Shown here: positions 9,157-48,716 of the stretch, in pieces
Layout of the letters: each line of letters begins with the position of its first letter
Numbering within the stretch: position 1 is the first letter of the stretch
Source: an uncultured Dehalococcoidia bacterium
GTDB taxonomy: Bacteria; Chloroflexota; Dehalococcoidia; Lucifugimonadales; GCA-2712585
Direction: 5' to 3'
Length of the DNA stretch: 64,000 nucleotides
NCBI GenBank assembly: GCA_951812825.1
Contig: OX638324.1
Coordinates: 2,331,141 to 2,395,140 of the forward strand
The notes under the pieces: generated by a model
What the model was told of the DNA's origin: nothing
What the model saw: only the letters and a program-made list of their open reading frames with translations
The model's database searches: none
Made by a program: the position numbers and the translations under genes

Positions 9157-10308
9157 TTAGTCGGTGGCGCGGGCTCCGTCTGTGGAGCGCATACCCTGGC
9201 GGTAACCGGCGATGATGCCGTCGGCGTTCCAGCGCTGGGTCTTGTCCCAGGCGCGCTGGATACTGGCGTTGGCACCCGTGAGGGCGGGCATTACGTAGCG
9301 GGCGAAGAGTTCCATGCTGTGGTACATCTTCTGGGTGGAGGCCCACTCGTTGATGGTGATGAGGAAACCGCCGGCGCCACCGGCTTCGTCGAAGAGAGCC
9401 TGAAGCTGGGAGGCGACGTCGTCCGGGTCGCCTACGATCCAGCGTCGGTTTCGGACGACTTCCTCAGCGGTAAGGTCGTCGAAGGGCTGGTCGGCATAGG
9501 TCTGGAACTGGCGCTGGCTACCGTTGCCGAAGTTGTAGCTGACTGAACTGAGGATACCGTCGCTAACGTCGGCCATGGCCTGCTCGCGGGTCTCGCCGAC
9601 GTGGACGTAGTGGACGAGGCGCCAATCGTCGCGGTTGACGGTCTTGCCGGCCTCGGCGGCGGCGGACTCAACAACGCCCCACTGCTGGGAGAGGGGGATG
9701 GAGCCGGCGATGGCGGAGTTGACCAGGGACCAGACGGGGAGGCCGTGGCGTCCGGCCTGGGTGAGGCTGTTGACGCTGCCGGAACTGGCCATGGCGACGG
9801 GTAGTCGGGGCTGCTGGTAGGACTTGACCATGAGCTCCATGTCTCTAAGCTGCCAGTAGTCGCCTTCGTAGGTGATGGGGCCGTCGGATTCGAGGAGCTT
9901 GATGATGATGTCGAGGGACTCGTTGGACATGGGACGGACCTGGTCGACGGAGAGTCCGAAGAGCATGAGGTCGGTGGCGAGGACGCCGGGGCCGACGCCC
10001 ATGACGAGGCGGCCGCGAGTGAGGTGGTCTAGGAAGGCCATGCGCTCGGCGACGTGGAAGGGGTGGTGGTAGGGGAGGTTGATGACGCCGGTGCCGAGGG
10101 TGATGCGCTTGGTCTTGGCGGCGGCCATGGCGATGAAGATGTCCGGGGCGGGGATGGTCTCCCATCCGGCGGAGTGGTGCTCGCCGATGAAGCATTCGTC
10201 GAAGCCGAGGTGGTCGACGAACTCGATGAAGTCGAGGTCGCGCTCGAAGGCGAGGGTGGGATTTTCGCTGGGGTGATGCAGAGGCATCATGAAGAAGCCG
10301 AATTTCAT
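9157..10308 (-). CDS. Luciferase-like (LLM class) flavin-dependent monooxygenase/oxidoreductase
   Basis: 383 aa. It has the N-terminus MKFGFFMMPLHHP..., FDECFIGEHHS and a TIM-barrel LLM pattern throughout. Confidence 0.85.
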   Translation of the reverse strand: MKFGFFMMPLHHPSENPTLAFERDLDFIEFVDHLGFDECFIGEHHSAGWETIPAPDIFIAMAAAKTKRITLGTGVINLPYHHPFHVAERMAFLDHLTRGRLVMGVGPGVLATDLMLFGLSVDQVRPMSNESLDIIIKLLESDGPITYEGDYWQLRDMELMVKSYQQPRLPVAMASSGSVNSLTQAGRHGLPVWSLVNSAIAGSIPLSQQWGVVESAAAEAGKTVNRDDWRLVHYVHVGETREQAMADVSDGILSSVSYNFGNGSQRQFQTYADQPFDDLTAEEVVRNRRWIVGDPDDVASQLQALFDEAGGAGGFLITINEWASTQKMYHSMELFARYVMPALTGANASIQRAWDKTQRWNADGIIAGYRQGMRSTDGARATD

Positions 10309-10450
10309 GCAGTTCTCCTAGAGTGGTTGGGATTCCGAAAGATTATATCAGAGGGCCGCACTGAGGCCAATTAAGGGGATGTTAAGCGGAGGGCGATGAG
10401 GGTGCTATGGTGGAAGGTCCAGAGGAGGCACGGTCAGGTGTTGTAGTGGG

Positions 10451-10552
10451 ATTATTCGTTTCAGCGTGATTCGTTATATTGGGTGGTGGAAACGAAGGGT
10501 GTTTTCCTTCGTAAACGGGGATTCGTAATTTGCTGTAGTGAAAACGAATGGC
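10451..10552. promoter_or_regulatory. Array of six TTCGT/ACGAA boxes in two about 50-bp units, a candidate operator region
   Basis: TTCGT occurs at 10455, 10470, 10508 and 10522. ACGAA occurs at 10492 and 10544. The pattern is direct-direct-inverted, twice. The array includes the 8-bp inverted repeat TTCGTTTC/GAAACGAA and lies 150-250 bp upstream of the LLM gene start (10308). Confidence 0.3.
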
Positions 10553-10720
10553 GCATTAACCAGGGGAAGAATTGCCTTTGGAAGGGGCTGGCCAGCGCGG
10601 AGGAGGAGTTCAGCGGAGCGTGCCGTGGAGTTGTGAAGTACGGTTATATGTTCCATTTGAGGAAGAATAGCAAGGAATGAGGTTTGTGGCAAGGGGGAAG
10701 ATGGCAGTAAGGGGGAGTGG

Positions 10721-10810
10721 GAGAGGGGGCGTTTCTCAGAGTGAAGGAGGGGAGACCCCCGGTCACCAGATTCTTCGTTGGGGGGCCTCCTCAGGAAAAG
10801 AGGGGGAGGG
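10721..10810 (+). repeat. Interspersed intergenic repeat, copy a (about 90 bp)
   Basis: GAGAGGGGGCGTTTCTCAGAGTGAAGGAGGGGAGACCCCCGGTCACCAGATTCTTCGT...GGGGCCTCCTCAGGAAAAGAGGGGGAGGG. It aligns by eye, with a few mismatches and short indels, to 11519-11610 in the same orientation. Confidence 0.7.
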
Positions 10811-10904
10811 GGGAAGGCGAAGAGGGGAGCGGACGACCACAAGGGTCGCCCCTTCGAAGGGCGGCGAACGGAGGGCGTGGGACGCCAGGCACAGGTGGTG
10901 AGGG

Positions 10905-11327
10905 CTACCAGGCGGCGAGGAGGATGCCGATGATGGCATAGGTGATTATGGGGTAGCCGGAGTTGATTAGGAAGAGGCGGAGGCTGCGGCTTTCGAAGCT
11001 GTAGGTGGTGGCGTAGGAAGTGGCTATGGCTCCTATGGATACGAGCAGGCCTAGGAGGAGGCCTTCGGCTGCGCCATTTGCCCCCATGCCTTGAATGAGC
11101 AGGGCGAGGACGAAGGTGAAGATGAGGGCGCTTATGATGGCGACGACGTAGGGGAGCCATTGCATGGGGGTGCCTTTCATGGCCTCCATGTCTTCCATGG
11201 TGAGGCCGACGTCGGCCATCCAGGGCTTGGCCCAGGTGCGGTACCAGGCTGCGCCGAGGAGCTGGTTGATGACGACTCCAACGATGATTGCGAGGTAGTT
11301 GAGGGATCCGAGGTCAAGGTTGTCCAT
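10905..11327 (-). CDS. DUF1761-family small membrane protein
   Basis: The preferred start is ATG 11327 (MDNLDLGSLNYLAIIVGVVINQLLGAAWY...), preceded by AGGAG. There are four predicted hydrophobic helices. The pattern matches DUF1761 as I recall it. Confidence 0.65.
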   Translation of the reverse strand: MDNLDLGSLNYLAIIVGVVINQLLGAAWYRTWAKPWMADVGLTMEDMEAMKGTPMQWLPYVVAIISALIFTFVLALLIQGMGANGAAEGLLLGLLVSIGAIATSYATTYSFESRSLRLFLINSGYPIITYAIIGILLAAW

Positions 11328-11454
11328 TTCCACTCCTTTTGAAGCCGGACTTGCGTTCTTTGCCTTTTTCGGCACAGAGATTATATGAAAAGGGTGGTGA
11401 ATGCAATGGTGGGATGTGGAGGAGGGAGTCCGCCTCTCGCCGCTCCGCCGTGGG

Positions 11455-11477
11455 TTCCTGCCTGCGCAGGAATGACG
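11455..11477. repeat. Hairpin repeat TTCCTGC-CTGC-GCAGGAA followed by TGACG
   Basis: 7-bp stem. The same architecture (ATTCCCGT-CTGC-ACGGGAAT followed by GACG) occurs at 60281-60304. It belongs to the widespread class of intergenic repeats that translate as VIPAQAG-like peptides in spurious ORFs. Confidence 0.5.
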
Positions 11478-11518
11478 AAGGGGGATGCAGGAATGGCATA
11501 GCGGAAGAGGGGGGGACG

Positions 11519-11610
11519 GAGAGGGGGTCGTTTCTCAGAGTGAAGGAGGGGAGACCCCCGGCCACCAGATTCTTCGTCGCGGGGCCTCTTCAGAAAAAAG
11601 AGGGGGAGGG
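11519..11610 (+). repeat. Interspersed intergenic repeat, copy b (about 90 bp)
   Basis: Direct copy of 10721-10810. The two copies bracket the DUF1761 gene. Confidence 0.7.
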
Positions 11611-11746
11611 TTTCTATGGGGATAGATTCTTCGGCATCGCTTCGCTGCGCACAGGGTGGCACGTGGGGGGCTAGAGGGGATGGTTGCTTGAAGCTTACTG
11701 TGGGGGTAGAATCCCAACGGTAACCGAAGTAGAGAGGCGGGGCGCA

Positions 11747-14700
11747 ATGTTCTTCAATCGCAGACTGTTTGGATTCACCGAGGGAGTAAGGCTGAGGCTT
11801 GTGCTGGCTCTCATCTTTGGTCTTCTGACGGCGGCCTCAGGGGTCAGCCGGCTGGCGCTTTCGGGTTACGCGATTGCGCTGGTGATTCGAGGCGCGCCTA
11901 CAGAAGAGATTATTCTGGCGGTTGTGGGAGTTGTGGCTTCGGCAGTGCTGCGGGGGGTTTTCCAGTACCTGAAGGAGATGACGGGGCACCTGGCGTCGGT
12001 GCGAGTGCAGGCGAAGATGAGGCGGGAGTTGTACCAGAGGGCGCTAATTCTGGGGCCCGGAGCGCTGGACCAGAAGCGGGCGGGGGACGTGCTGGTTTCG
12101 TTGGTGGAGGGCGTTGACCAGTTGGAAACCTACTACGGGGAGTATCTGCCTCAGGTGGCGGTGGCGGCGCTGACGCCCATCGGGATTTTCATATTCGTGG
12201 CGTTCCTGGACGTGCCCACGGCGGCGATTTATCTGGGCTTCGCCCTGTTTACACTGTTTGCCCCACTATTGTTCCACCACTGGAATGCAGTGAGCAGCGC
12301 GAGGCGTCGGGAAGTGTACGGAGACCTGAGCGCGGAGTTTCTAGACAGTGTTCAGGGGCTGGCGACGCTGAAGGCGTTCGGTCAGAGCCGGGCCCGGGGC
12401 CAGATGCTGGCGTCGAAGGCACGCGACGTGTACCAGAAGACGATGCGGATCCTGTTCATGAACGTGGGCACGACGGGCGCGACCTGGTTCGGCATCACGG
12501 CCGGAGCAGCGGTTGCGCTGGGGTTTGGCGCGGTGCGGGTGGCGGACGACTCGATGAGTCTGGCGACGCTGCTGGTGGTGTTGATGCTGGGGGTGGAGGT
12601 GTTTCGTCCTCTCCGGGAGCTGACGATGCTGTACCACAAGGGGATGCTGGGGATGTCGGCGGCAACGGCGGTCTTCGACCTGCTGGACGCGAAACCCCAG
12701 GTGGAGGACGTGGAGGGGAAGTCGGAAGCCGCTCCTTCGCTACAGCCGACGTTGAAGTTTGAAGACGTTACCTTCGCGTATCCCACGGGTCGTTCGGACG
12801 CGTTGAGCAATCTCAGCTTCGAGCTCAAGGCAGGGGAGACGCTGGGGGTAGTGGGACGAAGCGGCGCGGGGAAGAGTACGCTGGTGTGGCTGGCGCTGCG
12901 TTTCTTCGATCCATCCAAGGGCCGGATTTTGCTGGGCGGACAGGATATCCGAAGTATGCCGCTTGCGACGCTGAGAAAGCACGTGGCGGTGGTGGCGCAG
13001 GATACCTACCTGTTCCACGGAACTGTGGCGGACAACCTGAAGTTGGGGAACCCCGACGCAACCCAGGAAGAGATGCAGGAGGCGGCGAGGGCGGCCAACG
13101 CCGACCAGTTCATCACGTCGCTGCCCAACGGTTACGACACGGTAATCGGAGAGCGGGGGATTAGATTGTCGGGCGGACAGCGGCAGCGCATTGCCATCGC
13201 AAGGGCGCTGTTGAAGGACGCGCCGATTCTGCTTCTGGACGAAGCGCTTTCCAACGTGGACACGGAGAATGAGTCGATAATCCAACAGGCGTTGAACCGG
13301 CTGATGCAGGGCAGGACTACGCTGGTGATAGCGCACAGGCTTTCCAGCGTGATTGCCGCCGACCGGATTCTGGTTCTGGAGGAGGGACGGCTGGAGGAAC
13401 AGGGCGTCCACCGAGAGTTGATGCGCCAGCGGGGGGTCTACCGGAGCCTTATGGAGGCGCAGATGGAGACGGAGTCGGTGGAGCTTGCGCCGCTTCTAGC
13501 TACGGCCACTGCGGAGGATCCGGTGGCGGAAACGTACCACGGAGACTGGACGGGCCAGGGGTCCCAAGAGTATCTGCAGGAGCCGAGCATCATCAGCGCG
13601 ACGGCGGAGGAGATGAGCTGGTTCCGGGTCTTCGGGCGGCTTCTGAAGCTGGTAAGTCCATGGAAGACGGCGCTGACGTTCACCTTCATTCTGGGAATAC
13701 TGCGGGTGTTCGTGCTGATTGGGATAGGGGTTACGGGCGCGCTTATAGTGCGTCAGGTGGCGTTGGGCGGAGAGTTTGGCTTATTGTTGGTGGTGCTGGG
13801 CGTGATGGCCGTGTTGACGCCGATATTGCACTGGGCGGAGTCGTGGGTGTCCCACGACATGGCGTTCCGGCTGCTGGCCGAGATGCGGATAGCGATGTAC
13901 GAGAAGCTGGACCCGCTTTCGCCGGCGTACCTGGTGAGGCGGCGGTCTGGAGACATCGTGGGGCTGGTGACGAGCGATATCGAAACGGTTGAATACTTCT
14001 TCGCCCATACTATTGCCCCTGCCTTTGTTGCCGTGACGGTGCCTGGGGCGGTGCTGGTTACGCTGGCCATATTCCAGTGGCCGCTGGCGCTGATTCTGCT
14101 GCCGTTCCTGTTCCTGGTGGCGCTGACGCCGTTCTATGCGAACAAGACGCTGGACCGGGTAGCGTCGCAGTCTCGCCAGCAGTTGGGGGAGATCAATGCG
14201 CACATGGTGGACAGCGTTCAGGGGATGCGGGAGATTGTGGCGTTCGGGCACGAGGAGCAGCGGCTGGCGGAGGTGCAGGAGAACCAGAGGAAGTTTGCCG
14301 CCTACCGGATAACGTTTTTCAAACATCTGACGATTCAGAAGGTGGCGATTGAAGTGTGCATCGGGCTGGGGGGCATCGCCGTGCTGGGAGCGGGGGCGTA
14401 TTTCGCTACGCAGGGGAACCTGACGGGGACATTATTACCTCTGTTGAGCTTAATTGCGCTTTCGTCGTTCATTCCGGTGTCGGAGGTGGCGCAGGTAGGC
14501 AAGCAGTTGGCGGACACGCTGGGGAGTTCCCGTCGGGTATTCGCCGTGCATGACGAGCCGGTGCCGGTGCAGGACGGCAAGGGAGTCCACGCACCGCGGG
14601 AGGCGGCCCAGGGGTCGGCGGTGGCGTTCGAGGAGGTGGACTTCACCTACGGGCGGGGTCTGCCGCAGGCGTTGAAGCGGGTGGAATTTTCGATTGAGCC

Positions 14701-15361
14701 CGGACAGACGGTTGCCCTGGTGGGCCGGTCAGGCGCGGGGAAGACGACCTCGGCGCACCTGCTGCTGCGGTTCTGGGACCCGACGGAGGGTTCGATCAAC
14801 CTGGACCTGCATAATCTGAAGGAATTTGAGCTGGACGAATTGCGTCATTCAATTGCGTTGGTGTCGCAGGATACGTACCTGTTCAACACGACCATCCGGG
14901 AGAACCTGAAGGTGGCCAAGCCCGACGCTACGGACGAGGAGATTGTGGCGGCGGCGAAGCAGGCGAACGCGGATGAGTTTATCGCAGCGATGCCGGAGGG
15001 CTACGACACCAACGTGGGCGAGCGGGGAGTGCAGCTTTCGGGCGGACAGAGACAGCGGATAGCCATCGCGAGGGCGGTGCTCAAGGGCGCGCCGGTGCTG
15101 GTGCTGGACGAGGCAACGTCGCACCTGGACGCGGTGAACGAACGGCTGGTGCGGCAGGCCCTTTCGCGGCTGATGTCGGACCGGACGACGCTGGTGATTG
15201 CCCACCGGCTTTCGACGGTTCGGGACGCGGACAAGATTCTGGTGCTGGAAGAGGGAGAGCTGGTGGAGCAGGGGACGCACGAAGAGCTGCTGGCGAAGGG
15301 CGGGTTGTATTCGCATCTGGTTTCGGCGCAGGTTCTGCCCAGCGAGGGTGCTAGCGACTGA
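11747..15361 (+). CDS. Fused two-half ABC exporter (TMD-NBD-TMD-NBD), CydDC-like
   Basis: There are two Walker A sites (GRSGAGKST and GRSGAGKTT), two LSGGQRQR signatures and two Walker B sites (LLLDEA and LVLDEA). Each is preceded by a six-helix TMD. The preferred start is ATG 11747. The CydD/CydC-type assignment is tentative. Confidence 0.85.
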   Translation: MFFNRRLFGFTEGVRLRLVLALIFGLLTAASGVSRLALSGYAIALVIRGAPTEEIILAVVGVVASAVLRGVFQYLKEMTGHLASVRVQAKMRRELYQRALILGPGALDQKRAGDVLVSLVEGVDQLETYYGEYLPQVAVAALTPIGIFIFVAFLDVPTAAIYLGFALFTLFAPLLFHHWNAVSSARRREVYGDLSAEFLDSVQGLATLKAFGQSRARGQMLASKARDVYQKTMRILFMNVGTTGATWFGITAGAAVALGFGAVRVADDSMSLATLLVVLMLGVEVFRPLRELTMLYHKGMLGMSAATAVFDLLDAKPQVEDVEGKSEAAPSLQPTLKFEDVTFAYPTGRSDALSNLSFELKAGETLGVVGRSGAGKSTLVWLALRFFDPSKGRILLGGQDIRSMPLATLRKHVAVVAQDTYLFHGTVADNLKLGNPDATQEEMQEAARAANADQFITSLPNGYDTVIGERGIRLSGGQRQRIAIARALLKDAPILLLDEALSNVDTENESIIQQALNRLMQGRTTLVIAHRLSSVIAADRILVLEEGRLEEQGVHRELMRQRGVYRSLMEAQMETESVELAPLLATATAEDPVAETYHGDWTGQGSQEYLQEPSIISATAEEMSWFRVFGRLLKLVSPWKTALTFTFILGILRVFVLIGIGVTGALIVRQVALGGEFGLLLVVLGVMAVLTPILHWAESWVSHDMAFRLLAEMRIAMYEKLDPLSPAYLVRRRSGDIVGLVTSDIETVEYFFAHTIAPAFVAVTVPGAVLVTLAIFQWPLALILLPFLFLVALTPFYANKTLDRVASQSRQQLGEINAHMVDSVQGMREIVAFGHEEQRLAEVQENQRKFAAYRITFFKHLTIQKVAIEVCIGLGGIAVLGAGAYFATQGNLTGTLLPLLSLIALSSFIPVSEVAQVGKQLADTLGSSRRVFAVHDEPVPVQDGKGVHAPREAAQGSAVAFEEVDFTYGRGLPQALKRVEFSIEPGQTVALVGRSGAGKTTSAHLLLRFWDPTEGSINLDLHNLKEFELDELRHSIALVSQDTYLFNTTIRENLKVAKPDATDEEIVAAAKQANADEFIAAMPEGYDTNVGERGVQLSGGQRQRIAIARAVLKGAPVLVLDEATSHLDAVNERLVRQALSRLMSDRTTLVIAHRLSTVRDADKILVLEEGELVEQGTHEELLAKGGLYSHLVSAQVLPSEGASD

Positions 15362-15477
15362 GGGGCTTTCACTGACCATTTCGGCTAGTTTGGGTGTGGT
15401 GCGGCTGATATAATGGCCGCGCCACGGCCCCCGTATTGGGGCATTGGCAGTTTCAGAAAGGACGCTTGCAGAATTCC

Positions 15478-15816
15478 ATGATTTCCATATTTGTGACTAT
15501 CAACATCAAGCCTGGATTCAGGGACGCATTCGTTGCATCGCTGATGGGGGACGCTCAGGGTTCCGTGAGGGACGAGCCGGGGTGCTTCCGTTTCGACGTG
15601 CTTCAGAGCGACGAGAACCCGAACCGTCTGCACCTGTACGAGGTGTATGCAGATCAGGACGCTTTGGCGGCCCATCGAGGGGCGCCCCACTACGTGAAGT
15701 GGCGCTCGGAGGTTGAGGAGTGGTTTGACGGGGAGCCGGAGCGGATCGCGACGACGACAGTCTTTCCTTCGGACGAGGGATGGCGGGCGCAGAAGCCGAG
15801 GCTGGTCAACTGGTAG
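15478..15816 (+). CDS. Antibiotic-biosynthesis-monooxygenase (ABM) family protein, YgiN-like
   Basis: MISIFVTINIKPGFRDAFVASL...EPGCFRFDVLQSDENPNRLHLYEVYADQDALAAHRGAPHY is a classic ABM fold pattern. Confidence 0.75.
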   Translation: MISIFVTINIKPGFRDAFVASLMGDAQGSVRDEPGCFRFDVLQSDENPNRLHLYEVYADQDALAAHRGAPHYVKWRSEVEEWFDGEPERIATTTVFPSDEGWRAQKPRLVNW

Positions 15817-15881
15817 GTTCGGCTGACGAGGCGATCCACTTTCCTCCCGGGATTCCAAATTTACATAATGCAAGGTGAGAA

Positions 15882-17324
15882 ATGAATAAGCGTCAAGCGG
15901 CGCACCAACACGTCATCGAAAATCAGGCCGGGCACCTGGAGCGGGTTCGGGAGTTCATGGCCCAGCCCAGCGTGAGCCAGGACAACCAGGGGGTGGAGGA
16001 GTGCGCCAAGCTGCTGCTTCGGTACTACCAGGAGTTGGGATGCAAGGAGGCGGAAATAGCGGAGACGCCCGTCTTCCCCGCCGTGTGGGGGTACTACGAT
16101 GCGGGAGCGCCAAAGACGCTGGCGGTGTACAGCTACTTCGACACGAACGTGGTTGGGGACGGCTGGGACCATCCCCCGTACGATGCGGTGGTGGCGCCCC
16201 ACGGGCCGTTCAAGAAGGTGCTTTACGGTCGGGGGGCGAACAACAAGGGCGCGTTCATGGGCTTCCTGAATGCGTTGGAGTCGATCAAGGCTGCGGCGGG
16301 TGAGCTTCCGGTCAACCTGATGTTTGTTTCGGAGGGGGAGGAGTTCGTCGGGAGCGACCACATTCCGCTGCTTATCGACAGATACCGACATCACCTTTCC
16401 AAGGCGGACGATGCGATGGTGGCCGGGGCCTGCCAGACCGCTTCAGGGGACGTCACGCTTTTCCTCGGGAATAAGGGGAACCTGCACCTTGAGTTGGAAT
16501 GCTCCGGGGACCGGTGGGGCAGGGGTCCGGCGGGGGGGCCGGTGCATTCATCGGCGCAGCCCGTGGTGGACCACCCCGTCTGGCGGATGGTGCAGGCACT
16601 GTCCACGATGTTCGACCCGGAGACGAACCGGGTGTTGGTGGATGGGTTCTATGACGACCTGGAGGCGCCGTCAGCTGAAGACCTGGAATTGATTGACGGG
16701 CTGTCGAAGAGGTACAAGGGGCAGGAACGGAGCGCCATTCCGAGCCTTTCGCCGGGCAAGGTGGAACGCTTCGTGAACGACGTGTCTGGTAGAGACGCGT
16801 TTTTGCGGTACTGCTTTGAGCCGACGATGAACATCAACGGTCTGCGGGCGGGGTACACGGGGCCGGGGACGCTGCTGTGGACGCTGCCGAGCGCGGCTTA
16901 CTGCACCATCGACCACCGGCTGCCGCCGGACATGGACCCGCTCGACATTCGCGACAAGATCCGGGCACATCTGGACAGGAACGGGTTTGAGGACGTGGGG
17001 ATCAAGGTGCTGATGGCGGTGCCGGCGCAGAAGTTGAGCGTGACGGACGACGTCGCGAAGGCGGGGCTTCGGGTGTTCGATGGGTGGGGGATAGAGCCGA
17101 CGGTGTGGCCGCGGCGGGGAGCGAGCGGGCCGATGGGGTTCTTCAGCAAGATGCTGGGACTGAAGCTGCTGGGTTCGACGGGGATTGGCTATGCCAGCGG
17201 GCATTCGGCGCCTAACGAGTTTCTGGTTATCGAGGGGGACGGAAAGGTCGGGGGGCTTTCGGAGCTGGAGCGGTCCTTTGTGGACCTGCTGTATAGCTAT
17301 GCGGCGTATCCAGGGGAGTTTTAG
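15882..17324 (+). CDS. M20-family metallopeptidase/dipeptidase
   Basis: 480 aa with the motifs YSYFDT, GRGANNKGAFMG and SEGEEFVGS, which are metal-ligand contexts of M20 enzymes. Confidence 0.8.
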   Translation: MNKRQAAHQHVIENQAGHLERVREFMAQPSVSQDNQGVEECAKLLLRYYQELGCKEAEIAETPVFPAVWGYYDAGAPKTLAVYSYFDTNVVGDGWDHPPYDAVVAPHGPFKKVLYGRGANNKGAFMGFLNALESIKAAAGELPVNLMFVSEGEEFVGSDHIPLLIDRYRHHLSKADDAMVAGACQTASGDVTLFLGNKGNLHLELECSGDRWGRGPAGGPVHSSAQPVVDHPVWRMVQALSTMFDPETNRVLVDGFYDDLEAPSAEDLELIDGLSKRYKGQERSAIPSLSPGKVERFVNDVSGRDAFLRYCFEPTMNINGLRAGYTGPGTLLWTLPSAAYCTIDHRLPPDMDPLDIRDKIRAHLDRNGFEDVGIKVLMAVPAQKLSVTDDVAKAGLRVFDGWGIEPTVWPRRGASGPMGFFSKMLGLKLLGSTGIGYASGHSAPNEFLVIEGDGKVGGLSELERSFVDLLYSYAAYPGEF

Positions 17325-21698: not shown

Positions 21699-21974
21699 AT
21701 GGCAAGGGTACAGGTAATAATCCCAGGCGAAGATCAGGATCGGTTCGTGAGGCAGGCACGGAAATAAGGTCTTAGCTTCAGCGCTTGGCTGAGCGAGGCG
21801 GCCAAAGAACGTCTGCGAGCGCGGCAAAGAGACGAACGGTTCAAGTCCGTAGAAGATTTGACTCGGTTCTTTGAGGAATGCGATGCCAGGCAGGGGCCGG
21901 GGGTGGAGCCGGACTGGGAAGAGCATAAGCGCGTAATCGGAGAATCTCTAATGCGCGGGCTGCCGAAGACATGA
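21699..21974 (+). pseudogene. vapB: VapB-type (ribbon-helix-helix) antitoxin interrupted by an in-frame TAA
   Basis: The reading is MARVQVIIPGEDQDRFVRQARK-TAA(21765-21767)-GLSFSAWLSEAAKERLRARQ...SLMRGLPKT. It is one frame throughout and ends in an ATGA overlap with vapC. Confidence 0.6.
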
Positions 21975-22369
21975 TTGTTGTAGACACCAATCTCTTCATA
22001 TACGCGGTAGGCAGGCCCCATCCTCTGGGTTCGCGCGCCCGCGATTTCTTCAACGCTGCTCTCCGGAATTCTCATCCGCTTTGCGCGTCTGCGGAAGTGT
22101 TGCAGGAGTTGCTGCATGCGTATTTGCCCATTGGAAGGACGGGGACGTTCGCAGATGCCATTGACTTGATTTGCCGAGCCGGGGTTGAGATATGGACGCT
22201 AGACGAAGAGGACGTGATTTTAGCGCGGGGACTCTACAAACAATATCCAATGCTGGAGGTGAGGGACTTGTGCCATCTGGCAAGCTGCCGAAGGCGTGGT
22301 GTAGTAGAACTTAAGACGTTTGACAAAAAGCTGGAGAAGGTGGGCACTGAGGTCTTGGGTGGCGGTTGA
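21971..22369 (+). CDS. vapC: PIN-domain toxin VapC
   Basis: 132 aa. It has MIVVDTNLFIYA (the first acidic PIN residue) and later conserved acidic positions. Its start overlaps the vapB stop (ATGA). Confidence 0.85.
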   Translation: MIVVDTNLFIYAVGRPHPLGSRARDFFNAALRNSHPLCASAEVLQELLHAYLPIGRTGTFADAIDLICRAGVEIWTLDEEDVILARGLYKQYPMLEVRDLCHLASCRRRGVVELKTFDKKLEKVGTEVLGGG

Positions 22370-26052: not shown

Positions 26053-28104
26053 ATGCTTAGCGGACCCAAACCCGGCGAATCGCTCAGACTGGATATTGAT
26101 GACGGTACCGGACTTCGTGTAGCTAGTGCGCGGTTCGAGTCCGACTCGAAGTTTACGTGGTCGCTGTTTGACGGATTCGATCGCATTCGGATACTCACCT
26201 ACTCGGCTGGAGTAGGCGCTATTGTGCGGATGCTGGATAAGCACGACTTTAGTGACTTCGAATGCGTTTTTGGTTGCGAAAGCACGCTGCGAACCTTGAA
26301 GGATATTATGGCGTTCCAGCAGGTTGCGATCGGTGACACGAGGGCTGCTATCAAGGGTCTCTCTGACCAACGCCATTCCTTCATTCTTGGTCGAGTAAGA
26401 GAGGGCCAGGCCCGATTTCGAGTCTTACGCAAGGAAATAGCACATGCAAAACTTTACTTATTGGAAAACCTGGAGTCTGGCAATACCCGCGCCCTCATAG
26501 GCTCTGCGAACCTATCGGAAACTGCTTTTGGTGGACGACAGTCGGAGACCCTTGTGTGCTTCGACAATGACCCTGCTGCCTGGGGTCACTATCTGAGAAT
26601 GTACGAGGCCATTAGGGACCAGGCTTCGGACGAGATACCGTTGCCGACAGAGCGGGTGACGAACGAGACTATTCGACTTGATGAAGTACCAATATTGGAC
26701 GCCAACGATCTCTCTACGTTAGTGATTGATACAACCGAGGCGGATAATCAGTCAGGCAACGGCTATGGAATAGCTGTTCCTACACAGATAGAACGAATAG
26801 AGAAGATGAAAAAAGCCATCCCACCAGTTGTGGCTAGCGTCATTCCTCCACCGCGAAACGGAAGGCAGAGCATAACTCCCCAGACAAGACGGAGCATTGT
26901 CAAGGAATACAGTCGAATCCGCGTCGTGCAGTCTGATGAGGAAGCGGATCACCGTCAGATGTCAATTGACCGGGATATGAAAAGCGTCACCCTATTTGGT
27001 GAGCCCTTCCCTCTGAATTGGGATTCTGCTACCGCAAGGAGGGATGCACAGATTCTGGTGGAATTCTTCGGCAACTACGAGGGCACGTTTGAGGGGGGAA
27101 TGGGAGTGGAGAGGCTGCAGAGGGATTATTTCATCCTATGGTCATGGTTATACTTCTCTCCATTCATGTGTGACATGAGGACAAGGGCGGGCCACGACGG
27201 GGATATATTCAGATATCCTTCCTTTGCCATCGTCTATGGTAAACCTTCCTGCGGTAAATCCAGCCTCATCGACACGTTAATGACCTCCATGTTTGGTAGG
27301 GCGTATAACGTGGACAAGAGGGAGTTTACGAAGAGCAGACTCAGGGACATACAGTACGCATACAGACGGTTTCCCGCCGTATTCGATGATATCGGTAGGG
27401 CTGCGATACGCAATCACGGAGAGGACGCAATCAAGGACGAGATTCCGCCGTTGGTCTCCGAATATCCCTGCTTTGTTCTGTCGATGAACCAGGATCTCAA
27501 GGCGTTCAGCGACCAGGTAGTTAAGCGCTGCCTTATGATTTACACCACTACGGCTCTTCCCTCCTATAAGGAGAGCCTACGCCATGAGTTGCATTTGAAG
27601 ATTCAAGCTGTGCGTAGGGAATTGTCCACAAATCTATACAGGGCATACCTAAACGGAGTCTTGGATAGATTAGGCGAGGTTGTAACCCCCGAGGACTGGC
27701 TTCAGTTTTCCTCAAGTATCCTATCAAACTTAATTGGCGATCTGATTGACGATGATCTGCCAAAGTGGTGCGCGCCGGTAGGCTGGAACGATTATGCAGA
27801 CAAACGTCATGAGAGAGTGCAGGCGCAAATAGACCATCTGTTGAGACAGGCGACGAGGATGAAGAAGGAAGGGGACCGGCCCACGGGCTGGATGTTGGAA
27901 GACGATAAGGTCATTGTGATTGAGCAAACCGATACCTTCGGGCGACGTGAGTTTCAATGGGACAATGTTCCTTCGACTCTCATCGATGATAGCGCCAGTG
28001 TTGGGGGACGAACTGTCTTGAATCGGCCTGAACTTGAAGAATTCATAGGCCGGAATCTCAGAGGAAGACGAATCGGGCTGCTGAGCAGGCTATTTGGCGG
28101 TTAA
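26053..28104 (+). CDS. Fusion of an N-terminal PLD/HKD-family nuclease domain with a C-terminal SF3-helicase-like P-loop NTPase
   Basis: 683 aa. The single HKD-type motif is AHAKLYLLE...ALIGSANLSETAF (H131, K133, GSxN 150-153). Walker A is GKPSCGKS (396-403). The Walker B-like motif is AVFDD (442-446). A hydrophobic strand ending in Asn, FVLSMN (474-479), resembles SF3 motif C. G+C of sampled lines is 48-52%. Confidence 0.7.
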   Translation: MLSGPKPGESLRLDIDDGTGLRVASARFESDSKFTWSLFDGFDRIRILTYSAGVGAIVRMLDKHDFSDFECVFGCESTLRTLKDIMAFQQVAIGDTRAAIKGLSDQRHSFILGRVREGQARFRVLRKEIAHAKLYLLENLESGNTRALIGSANLSETAFGGRQSETLVCFDNDPAAWGHYLRMYEAIRDQASDEIPLPTERVTNETIRLDEVPILDANDLSTLVIDTTEADNQSGNGYGIAVPTQIERIEKMKKAIPPVVASVIPPPRNGRQSITPQTRRSIVKEYSRIRVVQSDEEADHRQMSIDRDMKSVTLFGEPFPLNWDSATARRDAQILVEFFGNYEGTFEGGMGVERLQRDYFILWSWLYFSPFMCDMRTRAGHDGDIFRYPSFAIVYGKPSCGKSSLIDTLMTSMFGRAYNVDKREFTKSRLRDIQYAYRRFPAVFDDIGRAAIRNHGEDAIKDEIPPLVSEYPCFVLSMNQDLKAFSDQVVKRCLMIYTTTALPSYKESLRHELHLKIQAVRRELSTNLYRAYLNGVLDRLGEVVTPEDWLQFSSSILSNLIGDLIDDDLPKWCAPVGWNDYADKRHERVQAQIDHLLRQATRMKKEGDRPTGWMLEDDKVIVIEQTDTFGRREFQWDNVPSTLIDDSASVGGRTVLNRPELEEFIGRNLRGRRIGLLSRLFGG

Positions 28105-28222
28105 GGCAGGAAGGTCTTGCATTGCGGGCTATTCTGGTGGGAGGGTAAGTCCGGCGGGTGGGGGTTTGGCGTAGGGGATAGTGGGGGTTGGGTGAGTTTG
28201 AGTTGGGGTGGGAAGGAGTTTT

Positions 28223-29812
28223 GTGAGTAGGATATTGTTGTTTTTTGCGATGCTGGTGGTTGGGGTTGCTGCGGCTGTCACGCTGGGTTGTTCGGGGGGT
28301 GATGGGACGTCGGGAGTGCCGACGGCGACTGTGATGCCTGAGGCTGCGGAGGGCCGGCCTGGGAGTGCAACGGTCGCGACTCCGTCGGCAACGTCGCGGG
28401 TGACGGCTGGGGCGACGCGTGAAAATACTACGTCGGAGATGACTCCAGCGTTGGGGGCGGGCTACGATTCCAGTGAGAATATGTTCCGTCTGTTTTCTGG
28501 GCGGGACCACGAATCTGTCGACACACTTGAGGCTATGGAGCTTGCTGTTGCCAACAGGGACAGGTCGATGGCGCCGGTGCTTATTGAGATGCTTCGATTC
28601 TTCGAGGACTATGTACATGCGATCGAGGCCCGGAAGGCGCTCACGGCGATAACGGGCCGGGTGGTTGAGGGGAATGAGGGGTCGTGGAGCGGGTGGATGG
28701 AGTGGCTGGTCAATAACGCCGACGAGCACCATCCGCCCGCCGGATATCTGGACTGGAAGATCGGGTTGATGAGTCTGATTGACCCCAGGTTCGAGGAGTT
28801 TCTGGCTCCGGCGGCTGAGGGGTCTCGCGTAAATGTGTTTGAGATTGCGTGGGGAGGCGTCGGGCCCGACGGGATTCCAGACCTTCAGGACTCGCCCGTA
28901 GTTTCGGCGGAAGAGCAGGACTATCTCCAGCCGGGGGACCGGGTCTTTGGAGTGTCGATCAACGGAGAGCATCGGGCATACCCGCATCGGATCATGAATG
29001 CTCACGAGATGGCCAACGACGTGCTGGGGGGCGAGCCCATTGCCCTGGCCTATTGAACGCTTTGCGGCACCGGAATCGTGTATTCCGCAAAGATAAACGG
29101 GGAGCCAACCACTTTCGGAACGTCGGGGTTGCTGTATCGCAGCAACAAGGTGATGTACGATCGTCTGACCAATAGTCTGTGGAACCAGTTTACGGGGGAG
29201 CCTATCATCGGACCGCTGTGGAACTCCGGGATGCAGCTGGATTTTTTCCCTGTGCTTGTGACGACGTGGGAGGAGTGGGTGGAGCTTCATCCGGATACGA
29301 CGGTGCTGGACAGGGAAACGGGGCATTATCCAGTGACGTACTATCTGCCGGAGGAGCACCGGGAGGCGATCTACTATGATTACTTTAACTCGCCGGGAAC
29401 GATGTTCGCGGTGCCGGACCGGGACGGCCGGCTTGCAACGAAGGACGTGGTGCTGGGGGTGCAGGTGAATGACAGCTACAAGGCGTACCCGGTTGCGGCG
29501 CTGCAGGAGGAGAGGATTGTCAATGACGCGGTGGGAGGCGAAGGGGTGGTGGTGTTGGGGTCGGCGGCGAGCCAGGGGGCGAGGGCCTATTTGCGAGGGG
29601 ACAGAGTCTTCGAGGCAGCGGGGGAGGATGGGGGAGTGGGGATTCCATCGGTGATTGCGGATGCTGATGGAGGCAGGTGGCAGGTGACGGAGGAGTTTCT
29701 GGTCAATGCGGCCGACTGGTCGGAGAAGCTGGCCCGGATTCCCACGCACACTTCGTACTGGTTTGGGTGGTTCCAGTTCCACGGGGATACGGAGCTTTAT
29801 ACGGGGCGGTGA
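28223..29812 (+). CDS. DUF3179-family lipoprotein read through an in-frame TGA (candidate selenocysteine at 29054-29056)
   Basis: The GTG start at 28223 follows GGAAGGAG. There is a signal peptide with ...TLGC. The two track ORFs (28208-29056 and 29078-29812) share one frame with only the TGA between them. Read-through gives ...HRAYPHRIMNAHEMANDVLGGEPIALAY-U-TLCGTGIVY...GTSGLLYRSNKVMYD, matching the DUF3179 core, where a Cys is conserved at this position. Confidence 0.65.
29060..29092 (+). promoter_or_regulatory. SECIS-like hairpin immediately downstream of the in-frame UGA
   Basis: The lower stem pairs CTTTG (29060-29064) with CAAAG (29088-29092). The upper stem pairs CGGAAT (29071-29076) with ATTCCG (29082-29087). 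The apical loop is CGUGU, which contains GU. The loop lies about 20 nt from the UGA. Confidence 0.5.
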
Positions 29813-32817: not shown

Positions 32818-33071
32818 ATGGCGAAGTTCTTGTTCCAGGCAGACTATAGCCCTGCTGGAGTGGCAGGGCTACGCAACGAGGGCGGTACAGGGCGGAAGAG
32901 GATGTTTGCGGACATGGGCGGGACAATCGAGTTCTTCTATATGCCTTTGGCAGAGAGGACCTCTACATGATTGTGGACCTGCCTGACGATGCTGCGGCCG
33001 TAGCTGCTTGAATGGCGGCGACGGCATCCGAAGTGTTGGCTGACGGCGTATACTGCATAGCACTGGTTTGA
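32818..33071 (+). pseudogene. Remnant of a GYD-domain protein gene
   Basis: MAKFLFQADYSPAGVAGLRNEGGTGRKRMFADMGGTIEFFY... matches the GYD/COG4274 N-terminus. A frameshift is then needed to read ...DLYMIVDLPDDAAAVAA, followed by an in-frame TGA and a truncated tail. It is too short to appear in the ORF track. Confidence 0.45.
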
Positions 33072-34777
33072 TGATTCCTGTGAACCGCATATATTTCCCT
33101 ACTATGCTTGGGTTGGCCTTGGTGTTGGCGATTGTGGGCTGTCAAAGGCCGGATGATGAATCCGACGCCTCGACGCCTGAGTCCGGGGCTACATTCATTG
33201 TGACGGCAGTTCCGGCATCGACGACGGCGGCTGCTGAAGCGGCTCCAGCCTCTCCGACGGCGGGGCCTACGGCGACGCAGGCAACCACATTGCCGGCTCC
33301 GTCGACGCCAGCGCCCACTGCTGCGCCTGCCGCGCCCTTCCCTTCGCCTACGAGACGGCCCATACCACGGGAGACGCCCACGCCCACGCCGGACAGGACT
33401 CGTTCGCCCACGCCTACGCCTATTGCTGTTCCGGCAGTCTACGAGTCCAACAAGAATATGTTCCTGCTACTGTCGGAGTTCATTCATCCTGAAGAGTCAT
33501 CGTTGGCGGCGTTGGAGAGGGCCAGGGCTGAGAGGGATGTCTCCCAGGTGCATGTCATATTGGAGGCGCTGCCGTTCTTCACCCGCGACCTTGCGATGGC
33601 CGGCATAGAGGCGGTGGGCCACCTTACGGGGCAGGATTTCGGTTTCGACCTGAGGAGGTGGAGAGAGTGGCTTGGGCCCAGGCACGAGGAGTATGCGCCA
33701 CCTTCCGACTATGCCCGCTGGAAGGCCAATATGCTTTCTCTGATTGACCCGGAACTGGGCGATCTGATGAAGCAGGCAATAGATGGAGGATCGAGGGCTA
33801 ATCTTACCGAGATTGTATGGGGCGGGGTACGAACGGACGGCATTCCGCCGCTGGAGTTTCCGCCGCACGCGAGGCCGGAGGGAGCGCTATATCTGCTGCC
33901 TGACGACAGGGTGTTTGGTGTTTCCATCAACGGTGAGCACCGGGCGTACCCGCTGAGGGTGATGAATGCCCACGAACTGGCGAACGACGTGCTGGGCGGG
34001 GAGCCAATTTCGTTAGTGTATTGAACACTCTGCGGCACCGGAATCGTGTATTCCGGCTTCGTAAACGGAGAGGAGACAACCTTCGGGACTTCCGGGATGC
34101 TGTACCGGAGCAACAAGGTTATGTATGACCGGGCAACCCGCTCTTTGTGGCATCAGTTCACGGGGGAGCCGATTATCGGCCCCCTGGCCAACTCCGGCAT
34201 CAAGCAACCCTTTTTCCCGTCCGTAGTCACCACGTGGGAGGAGTGGCTGGCGGAGCATCCCGACACGACGGTGTTGACGAATGAAACTGGCTATTACAGG
34301 GCGGAGTTCTACGTTCCTGAAGACAATCCACGGGCCATCTACTACGAGTATTTTACTACGGATGAGGTTATGTTCCCGGTGTGGCTTCGGGACCCGAGCA
34401 TAGAGCCGAAGAGGGTGGTTGTGGGACTCTTGACGAGCGAGAGAAAGAAGGCGTACGTGGTCGATGACTTGCGGGCGGCGAGGGTGATTAACGACACGGT
34501 GGGGGACGTGGAGGTAGTGATTGCGGCGTCGGGCGAGTCGCGCTCGGCCCGCGCCTACGAAAGGCAGGGGGAGACGTTTACGGCGGCGGGCGGCGGGGAC
34601 GCGGAGGCGACGCCCCGGTTCCTGGTGGACTCCAACGGAGCAAGATGGGAGGTGACCGAGGAGGCGCTGGTCCTTGAGAGCGACCCCTCAAAGACGCTGC
34701 CGCGGCTTGCTACGCTGACCTCCTTCTGGTTTGGGTGGTACCAGTATCACCCGGACACGGAGATTTACCGGCCCTAG
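33071..34777 (+). CDS. DUF3179-family lipoprotein paralog read through an in-frame TGA (candidate selenocysteine at 34022-34024)
   Basis: It has a signal peptide with the lipobox ...AIVGC and a Pro/Thr/Ala linker. The track ORFs 33068-34024 and 34046-34777 share one frame. Read-through gives ...HRAYPLRVMNAHELANDVLGGEPISLVY-U-TLCGTGIVY...GTSGMLYRSNKVMYD. Confidence 0.65.
34038..34056 (+). promoter_or_regulatory. SECIS-like hairpin downstream of the second in-frame UGA
   Basis: CCGGAAT-CGTGT-ATTCCGG is a 7-bp stem with the same CGUGU loop. It starts 13 nt after the UGA. Confidence 0.5.
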
Positions 34778-47197: not shown

Positions 47198-48329
47198 ATG
47201 ACGTCGCTGAGTTACGGAAGGTTGGCTCGTACGCAGAAGAAGGGCGCGGGATCAGGGGCTGCCCTGGACCTGAACGGTGACGTCATTCCAACCTGGGAGG
47301 AATTTGGTCCCCGAGGGCGTATTCTCCAGGCTATTGGGGTCAACGGGAAATTCGAAGTTGATCAAGACGGCCTTATTGAGATCGCCAACATTGAGCAGAT
47401 GGCTGCTATGGCACTTGATCTCAGCGGTAACGGGCGTCCAAAGAGTGGAGGAGTCTAGAAGCCATATTATGGGGCCTATCCTGTTGGAGAGGGAGGGGTG
47501 GTATGCAAAATCTACTACGGATATGAACTTGTACGCCCGCTGGATTTCGCAGCCCCAGACAGTTATTCGACGGGCGTAGTCCATGACGAATGGGGAACCG
47601 GCCAGGGTTGGTATCCCGCAACCCTGGGGTCGAATCAATCTCCTACTGTATTCGGAGGCAACGGGCGACGTGTCTGGCACTCTGTAAGTGGGTGAACTGG
47701 TCGGGTGTAATTCGGAGGCTCAGATCACGTCGAATCTTTCCTCTGGAAACGTTACGGGAGTACCCAGGGAAGGGGATCCGGTTGGAGTCAACGCAATCAA
47801 TTCCTGCCCTGCCAAAGTCACGGCCAGTTACGCCACAGGCGACGGAGACATTTGGGACTTCGGGACCGAGGTCCCACACCCGGCGCTGAAGGTTGATCTG
47901 GACGGAGACGGCGTTGCAACGTGGCAGGAAGTCGGCAACCAAGGCAGGGATACTTACTCCGCTTCTGCCGTCCCCGCAACAGGTCCGGCTGCTCCCACTC
48001 CCGTTCCCACTTTGGACGACGGGACCGAAATGGACGCCGACTCCGACGGTCTCATCGAGGTCTCAAGTCTGGGGCAGTTGAATACGGTACGATACGATCT
48101 CGACGGCGACGGAATTCTCGACGACGGCGGGACAGCTATCAATGCTTCAGTCTTCCCATCTCCCCTGCTCATCTTCGAGCGAAGCCTTCCCACGTACCAC
48201 TCTTGTCGAACTCCGAAAAGCAGCCGGGAGAGTTTGCACCGATGGGCTGCGTCTCAATTCCAACCGGCACAGCAACCGGGACTGGCTCTCGCCCACCCAT
48301 CGGTTCACCCCAGCAATTCTGAACTGTAA
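47198..48329 (+). pseudogene. Degraded fragment of a large repetitive surface protein gene (DxDGLIEI...LDGDG / GLUG-like repeat units)
   Basis: Pieces are spread over frames with an in-frame TAG (47456-47458) and at least one frameshift. The pieces are DQDGLIEIANIEQMAAMALDLSGNG, GYELVRPLDF...GQGWYP...FGGNG, ELVGCNSEAQITSN...SYATGDG..WDFGTEVPHPALKVDLDGDGVATWQEVGNQ and DSDGLIEVSSLGQLNTVRYDLDGDG. Confidence 0.5.
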
Positions 48330-48512
48330 ACGCCAATTGGATAGGTTGACTACTACAGCGTCGAGAGTGTACCATGTTCTGCTTAATAAGCGATACTTTA
48401 TATCATTAAAGTGTAAAGGAGGATAGCAATGCGCGCTGACAGAGGAACCAGGATGTGAAGGCCAGGAATCCATTTGCGAATTACATTTGAAAATCAATGC
48501 ACGAGGTGAAAC

Positions 48513-48707: not shown

Positions 48708-48716
48708 GGGGGCATT

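Follow-up and report, generated by a model that had tools for sequence, protein, structure and literature searches.

A 64,000-nucleotide stretch of contig OX638324.1 from an uncultured Dehalococcoidia bacterium (the window, numbered from its first letter) contains a gene whose product unites, in a single chain of 683 amino acids, a predicted nuclease domain of the phospholipase D (PLD) superfamily and an AAA+ ATPase module resembling superfamily 3 (SF3) helicases. We favor the interpretation, with a probability of roughly 0.55, that this protein is an autonomous, single-polypeptide, ATP-driven PLD nuclease acting in defense or in conflict between mobile elements. Because the gene travels as cargo on mobile DNA, a stand-alone ATP-driven defense nuclease is the most likely function. 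By analogy with SauUSI, NgoAVII, and MtsD, the enzyme may be a restriction-like factor directed against foreign or competing DNA, in which a ring motor takes the place of the motors of those nucleases. A previous reading of the DNA, made from its letters (the sequence-only reading), had proposed a candidate defense or mobile-element gene. The association with mobile DNA is borne out by genomic islands, plasmids, and a cargo slot in an integrative element, and defense is still a candidate function.

The gene and its homologs

The open reading frame (ORF) and all the motifs quoted in the sequence-only reading are present as claimed. The ORF begins with ATG, 33 nt past the stop codon of an MpaB/Lcp-like gene, with a Shine–Dalgarno-like AGGAAG 5′ of the start, and the next ORF follows 103 nt downstream. 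A scan for promoters and terminators gave no more matches than shuffled sequence. That it is a genuine gene rather than an ORF arising by chance is shown by its more than 1000 homologs, low ratios of nonsynonymous to synonymous substitution (dN/dS), and an AlphaFold2 model with a mean pLDDT (predicted local distance difference test) score of 87.9. The homologs were collected by a word-indexed search, and the top 120 are full length with 74–99% identity; an exhaustive search gave 788 clusters at 50% identity, 194 of them at E ≤ 1e-30. The architecture of 650–800 aa is kept down to ~25% identity. Values of dN/dS were 0.06–0.22 in 11 of 12 computable close pairs, solitary copies included; the twelfth and least diverged pair (dS 0.014) gave 0.36.

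Close homologs were looked up with P0001, which is 99% identical to the window protein. A precomputed Pfam match to PF27394 ("Aq_aa27") is found on P0001 and on essentially all close homologs. This is the only catalogue entry of the family, and its name carries no functional information; Aq_aa27 is presumably an uncharacterized ORF on the Aquifex aeolicus plasmid ece1. The homologs are annotated in their sources as "phospholipase D family protein" or "restriction endonuclease PLD domain-containing protein." Literature searches on PF27394/aq_aa27 returned nothing or spurious string matches, those for a PLD nuclease fused to an SF3/AAA+ module found no description, and searches of NCBIfam and PHROGs gave nothing useful.

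Nuclease domain

Features of the protein are listed in Table 1. The catalytic motif of the N-terminal domain consists of AHAKLYLLE (aa 130–138) and GSANLS (aa 150–155), and a pattern match over the whole protein found one HKD motif per chain, as the sequence-only reading had stated. Pfam RE_NgoFVII (PF09565) matched aa 124–175 with 27.3 bits against a curated cutoff of 23.8, and PLDc_2 scored under its cutoff in the window protein. Among 71 diverse relatives (E ≤ 0.01), PLDc_2 was detected in 70 and RE_NgoFVII in 63. Fold matches for this domain in a Foldseek search of the Protein Data Bank (PDB) included R.NgoAVII (PDB ID: 4rct; E 2.4e-5) and SauUSI (PDB ID: 7clg; E 1.9e-3, root mean square deviation 5.6 over 172 columns). 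In an alignment of 88 sequences reaching down to ~20% identity, the invariant columns of the domain are G74, H131, K133, S151, N153, and E165. The HxK(x)4D/E(x)n G-S-x-N motif, the profile match above its curated threshold, and the fold all place the domain inside the PLD superfamily, in agreement with its earlier assignment to the NgoFVII type. We regard it as a restriction-enzyme-type PLD nuclease of the BfiI/NgoFVII/NgoAVII/SauUSI kind, the activity being predicted from sequence and model. In one-motif HKD nucleases such as Nuc, BfiI, SauUSI, and MtsD, the active site is built by dimerization, and the reaction proceeds through a phosphohistidine intermediate without metal ions.

An extra N-terminal HTH_17 domain (excisionase/MerR-like) precedes the PLD domain in 10 of the 71 relatives. 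Members of this subfamily (P0156, P0166, P0168, P0176, P0193, P0196, P0225, and P0232) are 724–802 aa long, and the additional domain suggests sequence-specific recognition of DNA.

Middle domain and ATPase motor

The AlphaFold2 model, a monomer prediction built on the 88-sequence alignment, has 441 residues with pLDDT ≥90. It is composed of four parts: the PLD domain, a folded middle domain, a five-strand ASCE/AAA+ core, and a helical lid with a small C-terminal domain. The sequence-only reading had described a linker of about 200 aa behind the nuclease domain. This description was not upheld; according to conservation and pLDDT, the region is a conserved, confidently folded domain, in which only two short loops (aa 231–242 and 291–298) are disordered. 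Its last element is a long helix that runs into the ATPase core and contains RLQRDYFxLWSWLYFSPFMCDMR; apart from the catalytic sites, no motif of the family is stronger.

The motor module has Walker A, Walker B, the motif C Asn, and an arginine in the order of SF3/D5/DUF927 helicases on an ASCE core, and G396, K402, N479, and R492 are invariant in the 88-sequence alignment. Between Walker B and sensor-1, where helicases of this class carry motif B′ with a pre-sensor-1 beta-hairpin that touches DNA in the central channel, the model has a helix (aa 449–461) and a loop rather than a hairpin, and K461 at the end of this helix is kept in ≥90% of the relatives. R492 appears in the model at the canonical position of the trans-acting arginine finger of AAA+ proteins and probably has this role. 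AAA+ proteins with a trans-acting arginine finger hydrolyze ATP only as oligomers, and the relatives of the module among SF3, Cch, and D5 proteins form hexameric rings that move along DNA. The C-terminal domain carries a conserved FGRRxFxWxxVPSTLID and, from the order of its secondary structure elements, looks winged-helix-like. The two catalytic centers of the protein are strictly co-conserved across the family.

The top Foldseek match in the PDB was Cch, the DUF927 helicase of the staphylococcal cassette chromosome SCCmec (PDB ID: 5dgk; E 1.6e-6 over ~412 columns); judging from the alignment length alone, the middle domain probably lies within these columns. Further matches included many AAA+ proteins, the large T antigen (LTag) of JC virus (PDB ID: 5j47), and NS1 of parvovirus B19 (B19V; PDB ID: 9kbi). 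In BFVD, a collection of predicted viral structures, the matches (E 5e-7 to 1e-4) were COG3378 primases and DUF927, D5-like, and LTag proteins, that is, primase-helicases of phages and of nucleocytoplasmic large DNA viruses (NCLDV)/giant viruses, a "ring-shaped active helicase," and polyomavirus LTag. At the level of sequence profiles, PF00910 (SF3 helicase) matched aa 393–476 below its threshold (19.1 bits; cutoff, 21.5) and was found at E ≤ 0.01 in 8 of the 71 relatives, VapE-like was found in one of them, and DUF927 and D5_N were absent from the Pfam matches of the window protein and the 71 relatives. A sequence search of the PDB with the single protein gave nothing useful, and a profile search gave weak matches only (NucT, Zucchini, and Cch at E 0.056). 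The kinship of the modeled ATPase to SF3/D5/DUF927 helicases is one of fold and motif, not of sequence family. The C-terminal module is not a kinase, and the matches to Cch, LTag, NS1, and primase-helicases agree with its earlier description as SF3/D5-like and not DEAD/SNF2-like.

Table 1. Coordinates of the gene and of the features of its product in the window
Feature	Position	Strand	Basis
Complete gene, PLD-nuclease/AAA+ (SF3-like) ATPase fusion, 683 aa, stop included	26053..28104	+	ORF list, full-length homologs, AlphaFold2 model
Predicted N-terminal PLD/HKD nuclease domain, NgoFVII/BfiI type, ~aa 20–195	26110..26637	+	PF09565, Foldseek, invariant residues
Single HKD catalytic motif AHAKLYLLE...GSANLS (H131, K133, N153)	26440..26517	+	Sequence positions, invariance in 88 relatives
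Conserved folded middle domain, aa 196–385, not a linker	26638..27207	+	Conservation; pLDDT mostly 80–98
AAA+/ASCE ATPase core, aa 386–500, beta1 to beta5	27208..27552	+	Model secondary structure, Foldseek
Walker A/P-loop GKPSCGKS, aa 396–403 (G396, K402 invariant)	27238..27261	+	Motif, alignment
Walker B PAVFDD, aa 441–446 (D445, D446; D446 in ≥90%)	27373..27390	+	Motif, alignment
Sensor-1/SF3 motif C strand FVLSMN, aa 474–479 (N479 invariant)	27472..27489	+	Motif, alignment, model
R492, invariant, end of helix alpha4 just before beta5	27526..27528	+	Alignment; model helix 487–492, strand 493–498
Alpha-helical lid (~aa 507–600) and small C-terminal helix/beta-hairpin domain (~612–665)	27553..28101	+	Conservation, model

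The gene as cargo of mobile DNA

In about a dozen Dehalococcoidia loci, genes for a Replic_Relax protein, the focal protein, a ribbon-helix-helix (RHH) protein, and a large serine recombinase follow one another in this order. The relaxase/recombinase module abuts a tRNA-Arg gene in loci L018 and L028. Replic_Relax (PF13814) falls within the superfamily of MobC relaxases, which are found in compact integrative mobilizable elements (IMEs) with serine integrases (PMC5357655). In L123, the genes for the relaxase, the RHH protein, and the recombinase directly adjoin one another, and the slot of the focal gene is empty; in L124, whose relaxase is 75% identical, the slot holds two unrelated small ORFs. 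The same slot region contains PIN_3 in L025 and a REase-ARP nuclease in L046. Since the backbone exists without it in L123 and L124, the focal gene is variable cargo and not part of the element core. The sample of this test is small, consisting of two look-ups, which were concordant, and the cargo status is further backed by the intact solitary copies that are under strong purifying selection. As a separate observation, loci L086 and L087 contain an inverted repeat of ~770 bp (12,198–12,967 and 14,989–15,773) composed of the RHH gene and the 5′ part of the serine recombinase gene, giving two convergent RHH–recombinase units arranged tail to tail; it may have arisen from back-to-back integration of two elements or be an invertible segment.

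Other carriers of the gene are plasmids and genomic islands. On Komagataeibacter/Acetobacter plasmids, it is a solitary gene among BrnT, VapC/Phd, MazEF, HicAB, and RelBE modules and resolvases, within accessory regions of replicons encoding Rep proteins of their own. L096 and L097 contain a tyrosine integrase, Type ISP and Eco57I restriction–modification (RM) genes, IS1595, and PIN_3; L093 contains IS110/IS3, DUF4365, and an integrase; and L092 contains an EcoRI-type methylase, Abi_C, and plasmid- or phage-like small ORFs. The neighbors in Latescibacterota include Fic, SLFN/AlbA_2, and zeta-toxin-like genes. In L088 (4,342–9,970; also in L089), an HTH_17-bearing member is followed by a 975-aa protein with RNase_T and a DinG-like helicase and by three tandem OGG_N/HhH-GPD genes, and a PHP-domain gene also adjoins a distant member beside the DinG-like/OGG genes. 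Since HhH-GPD is the fold of the hypermodified-base sensor of END nucleases, the locus may represent a multigene variant sensing modified DNA.

Neighbor conservation was assessed by our own clustering of ORFs over 80 loci. No universally conserved neighbor was found among them, which points to genetic autonomy. The contexts of the homologs were variable, with no conserved housekeeping operon.

Two further observations concern the surroundings of particular copies. A protein of ~1,200 aa that combines Helicase_C with UvrD-helicase domains is encoded repeatedly near the focal gene, only a few genes away and in varying arrangements, in L001 (13,357–16,983), L049, L055, L032, L036, and L050 and could be a co-cargo or a functional partner in one sub-clade. 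Loci L024, L032, L036, L039, and L055 (~10,000–16,450) share a 6.45 kb segment with unalignable flanks on both sides. It comprises the focal gene and purC together with a HAD hydrolase gene, a PhyH dioxygenase gene, and one unknown ORF, and its left boundary coincides with the start of the focal gene. The 4.3 kb downstream of the focal gene are ~100% identical, whereas the focal gene itself is a mosaic with 80–98% identity. This could reflect a recent block transfer with the focal gene as its divergent edge or chimerism of the metagenome-assembled genomes (MAGs).

Distribution, composition, and history of the family

When one genome per species was scanned with a pattern, at least 87 of 185,579 species representatives proved to carry relatives. 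Most carriers are MAGs of Dehalococcoidia and other Chloroflexota, and Latescibacterota and single records of Caldilineaceae and Chloroflexia were also found. In a neighbor-joining tree, the Latescibacterota copies occupy three separate places among the Chloroflexota copies. The copy of L013 (Latescibacterota) shares 88% identity with a Chloroflexota copy but only 64% with its nearest Latescibacterota counterpart. Provided that the MAG labels are correct, this nesting indicates repeated crossing between the phyla.

In the window, the gene is compositionally foreign, and the sequence-only reading had placed it in a distinct stretch: its GC content is 0.51 against ~0.59 for the 10 kb on each side, and its GC content at third codon positions is 0.567 against 0.67–0.80 in most neighboring genes. 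In high-GC hosts, the gene typically lies 2–10 points under its flanks, although not in all. No terminal inverted or direct repeats flank the gene, and no noncoding flank is conserved among nonsyntenic loci; on these grounds, a self-mobile single-gene element was rejected. Two copies lie ~300 kb apart on one contig of 1.49 Mb. Decayed copies also exist. Those of L026 and L078 are truncated, and that of L052 (11,463–13,537) is split by an IS21 element with genes for IstA (rve and Mu-transposase C-terminal domain) and IstB.

Comparison with known systems

The sequence-only reading did not recognize the architecture among named defense systems. This still holds, as PADLOC v2, applied to the window protein and the 71 relatives, gave only motif-level matches and no full-length system model; the "PLD_Helicase" model matched weakly in 2 of the 71 relatives. 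The closest known proteins are considered below in turn.

SauUSI and MtsD of the MANTIS system dimerize, use SF2 motors, and have a single composite PLD site (bioRxiv 10.64898/2026.09.23.753747). They resemble the present protein in being single chains in which an N-terminal BfiI-type PLD domain with one HKD motif is followed by an ATP motor. Having one HKD motif per chain, they form the active site by dimerization. SauUSI, an ATP-dependent Type IV restriction enzyme, also works alone, without a methyltransferase, and its PLD domain is structurally similar. In contrast, their SF2 motor is a pair of RecA domains, whereas here one AAA+ domain, with its sensor-1 Asn and a putative arginine finger, serves as the motor; neither SF2 domains (ResIII/DEAD and Helicase_C) nor an SRA-like or DUF3427 domain for target recognition was found in the window protein or the 71 relatives. 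They are also dimers, whereas a ring would be expected here.

NgoAVII/CglI and BfiI have the closest PLD domain, both by sequence family (PF09565) and by fold (4rct). Cleavage by NgoAVII and CglI requires nucleotide hydrolysis by a separate N-protein. Their R-protein has a C-terminal B3-like domain for DNA recognition and cooperates with a separate SF2-type ATPase and a methyltransferase, whereas nuclease and ATPase are fused here; no B3 domain was found in the window protein or the 71 relatives, and no partner gene is conserved in the 80 loci.

END nucleases (for example, END-PaCF1) are single-gene defense proteins in which an N-terminal BfiI/NgoAVII-like PLD domain is joined to a swappable C-terminal module, and they escaped DefenseFinder and PADLOC when they were found (PMC12191111). 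Their C-terminal module is an inactivated EndoIII/OGG-like sensor of modified bases without ATPase, whereas an ATPase module occupies this place here. The link to END nucleases is limited to the OGG-like neighbor genes at the one distant locus described above.

Cch of SCCmec, the Rep proteins of Staphylococcus aureus pathogenicity islands (SaPIs), and D5/primase-helicases provide the best structural match for the C-terminal two thirds. These proteins are replication initiators or helicases, often with a primase, and belong to the core of their elements; the present protein has a PLD domain in front and is cargo.

Mokosh and Azaca are experimentally tested defense systems of the PLD-type "nuclease–NTPase" class (bioRxiv 10.1101/2025.07.10.664194). 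Mokosh, Azaca (ZacB), and DISARM (DrmC) likewise combine a PLD nuclease and a P-loop NTPase in their defense against phages. Their NTPases are superfamily 1 (SF1)/SF2 helicases, and Azaca and DISARM are multigene systems. The ZacB and DrmC models cover only ~50 residues around the HKD motif of our protein.

The Reps with an HUH nuclease and an SF3 helicase (parvovirus NS1/Rep, CRESS Rep, and IME Rep_2+PF00910 proteins) share the layout of a nuclease followed by an SF3-type ring helicase, and B19V NS1 and a parvoviral nonstructural protein were among the fold matches. They differ in the class of nuclease (HUH instead of PLD/HKD), and the gene described here is dispensable to its element. No Rep-family match was obtained for the window protein or the 71 relatives.

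The protein does not have the defining features of SauUSI, NgoAVII/CglI, Mokosh, Azaca, or the Rep families. Its architecture is that of a motor-driven PLD nuclease with a different class of motor, ring-type instead of SF2.

Proposed mechanism

Here, we propose how the protein may work. The ATPase module would form an oligomer, probably a hexameric ring like those of its structural relatives, and the ring would load onto and translocate along nucleic acid, probably DNA. RNA is the substrate of some PLD nucleases and of some SF3 ATPases, and it could in principle be used here as well. Paired N-terminal PLD domains would close a composite HKD site, either within one ring or between two; in the latter case, two converging rings could pair their PLD domains, as with McrBC-type enzymes. 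Cleavage at the HKD site would pass through a phosphohistidine intermediate, and ATP hydrolysis may serve to gate cleavage or to position it, in the manner of SauUSI, NgoAVII/CglI, and MANTIS MtsD. Since there is no methyltransferase partner, self and non-self would have to be told apart either by DNA modification, in a Type IV-like manner, or by the structure or entry form of the invading DNA. BfiI-type PLD domains are combined in a modular way with sensor or motor modules in tested defense nucleases (PMC12191111; bioRxiv 10.64898/2026.09.23.753747; bioRxiv 10.1101/2025.07.10.664194).

If the protein is a defense enzyme, it would represent a new mechanistic class of stand-alone ATP-dependent restriction and pose the puzzle of how a dimerizing nuclease is coupled to a motor expected to be hexameric. 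To our knowledge, the characterized motor-driven PLD restriction nucleases (SauUSI, NgoAVII/CglI, MtsD, and the Mokosh and Azaca components) all use SF1/SF2 motors. Here, the same nuclease is joined to an AAA+ ring-helicase module of a kind otherwise met in the replication initiators that viruses and mobile elements encode. The family is large and invisible to PADLOC v2, and it is spread by plasmids and small integrative mobilizable elements in uncultured Chloroflexota and Latescibacterota.

Arguments against a defense role and alternative functions

Several observations weigh against a role in defense. In the Dehalococcoidia clade that includes the window copy, most immediate neighbors are housekeeping genes, not defense genes. 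The protein evolves no faster than its neighbors, unlike what is typical of arms-race genes: across 74 pairs of syntenic loci, the identity of the gene equaled the neighbor median (mean difference, +0.2 points), and the gene is stable within lineages. No PADLOC v2 model matched outside the HKD and P-loop motifs, the matches being ZacB at aa 130–184, mad8 at aa 386–424, and weak DrmC and PbeA. The motor is most closely related to replication helicases that mobile elements encode, not to motors of defense systems. Finally, a clean empty site for the window copy was not found in 25 loci from JGI metagenomes looked up by the upstream MpaB-like gene: the focal gene was present in 0 of 25, and downstream synteny was also kept in 0 of 25.

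Among the alternatives, the best placed, although unlikely, is a Rep-like protein of mobile elements, in which a PLD nickase replaces the HUH nuclease before an SF3 helicase and serves the replication or mobilization of the excised element. SCCmec, which carries the replication helicase Cch, is likewise moved by large serine recombinases (PMC7581432), and a function as the replication initiator of the element is conceivable on this ground. In structure, the motor comes closest to self-loading replication helicases that mobile elements encode and to primase-helicases (PMC7581432), a nuclease followed by an SF3 helicase is the classic layout of Reps, as in the Rep_2+PF00910 proteins of IMEs (PMC5357655), and the HTH_17 domain of 10 of the 71 relatives is of the excisionase type. 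The dozen or so loci in which the gene lies between the MobC relaxase and the RHH/large serine recombinase genes (one genome has two) also fit this function, but L123 and L124 show that the same backbone occurs without the gene or with other ORFs. Most copies are solitary, without element genes, and yet strongly purified with intact catalytic residues, and the plasmid copies reside in accessory regions of replicons having their own Rep. No iteron-like repeats or conserved noncoding flanks were found beside the gene, and the search for iteron- or origin-like repeats downstream of it, as in SaPI/SCC elements, gave nothing above chance. The PLD domain is, moreover, of the restriction-enzyme type. 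A tblastn search of 50,697 phage genomes gave no relative, although a search of this kind did detect plasmid homologs at 25% identity; pattern scans of IMG/VR with two family members gave no match either. These two results also led us to reject a phage origin of the gene.

A broader form of this thought, which we consider improbable, is that the PLD domain acts as a covalent phosphohistidine nickase/transesterase instead of simply cutting and forms with the SF3-type ring helicase a non-HUH analog of Rep, relaxase, or Helitron-type proteins. If so, the protein would be a self-sufficient module that starts rolling-circle replication, mobilizes its carrier DNA, or hijacks the DNA of a rival plasmid, and it would provide a previously unknown enzymatic route to start strand-displacement DNA transactions.

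We give equally little credence to a horizontally acquired function in host DNA repair or genome maintenance, in which the protein processes blocked ends or stalled replication intermediates and is kept for a housekeeping benefit. Its stable inheritance, neighbor-like rates, and strong purifying selection would be explained, as would the housekeeping flanks of many Dehalococcoidia copies and the distant member beside a PHP-domain gene, a DinG-like exonuclease-helicase, and three OGG-type glycosylase genes; the PLD superfamily also includes the repair enzyme Tdp1, for which the match is motif-level only. A repair enzyme is, however, difficult to reconcile with the patchy spread (≥87 of 185,579 species representatives), the repeated transfer between phyla, the cargo position in an integrative element and in accessory regions of plasmids, and the occurrence of distant members in islands of RM, Abi, and toxin–antitoxin (TA) genes. 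Copies are disrupted or truncated in some genomes, as by IS21 in L052, and the PLD domain is closest to restriction endonucleases.

A toxin-like addiction or stabilization module, that is, a post-segregational killer possibly controlled by the small downstream RHH protein, is very unlikely: the surroundings on plasmids and in Latescibacterota are TA-rich, an RHH gene (RHH_1, with a weak Antitox_RHH match) lies immediately 3′ in 11 loci, and PIN_3 adjoins the gene in L025 and is near it in L096/L097, but this RHH gene is a component of the recombinase backbone and also occurs where the focal gene is missing, the window copy (no ORF in the 33 nt upstream or 103 nt downstream) and most others have no small partner, and no neighbor is conserved.

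Other features of the window

The neighbors of the gene in the window encode an MMPL transporter, the MpaB/Lcp-like oxygenase, split DUF3179 proteins, and a permease of the xanthine/uracil family; transport genes are thus close by, as the sequence-only reading had noted. DUF3179 is encoded as two adjacent ORFs for its N- and C-terminal parts, in two tandem pairs (28208–29056/29078–29812 and 33068–34024 onward). Since the same is seen in independent contigs of the same species (L084 and L085), the split is a conserved arrangement and not a frameshift artifact. A PIN-domain (VapC-like) gene at 21971–22369 (+) lies between an alpha/beta-hydrolase gene and the MMPL gene. The near-identical contig L084 has only a 50-aa ORF in this interval, which suggests a presence/absence polymorphism of a toxin gene.

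An ORF at 52075–54126 (+), also of 683 aa, looks like a secreted solute-binding lipoprotein. It was considered as a second copy of the gene and rejected, being unrelated (BLASTP E 0.84); the equal length is coincidental. The region around it (48000–55400) has a lower GC content (0.48–0.56) and negative GC skew, and it ends near a tRNA-Ala(GGC) gene at 55311–55386 (–). By eye, its ORFs appear metabolic (M24-peptidase-like, binding protein, and short-chain dehydrogenase), and no mobile-element genes were seen. Seryl- and lysyl-tRNA synthetase-like genes are located just past it. Over nearly all of the first 48 kb of the window, the GC skew of the + strand is strongly positive (typically 0.1–0.4). 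In the regions examined, most real genes are on the + strand, and long spurious antisense ORFs occur, such as that of 574 aa at 28058–29782 (–).

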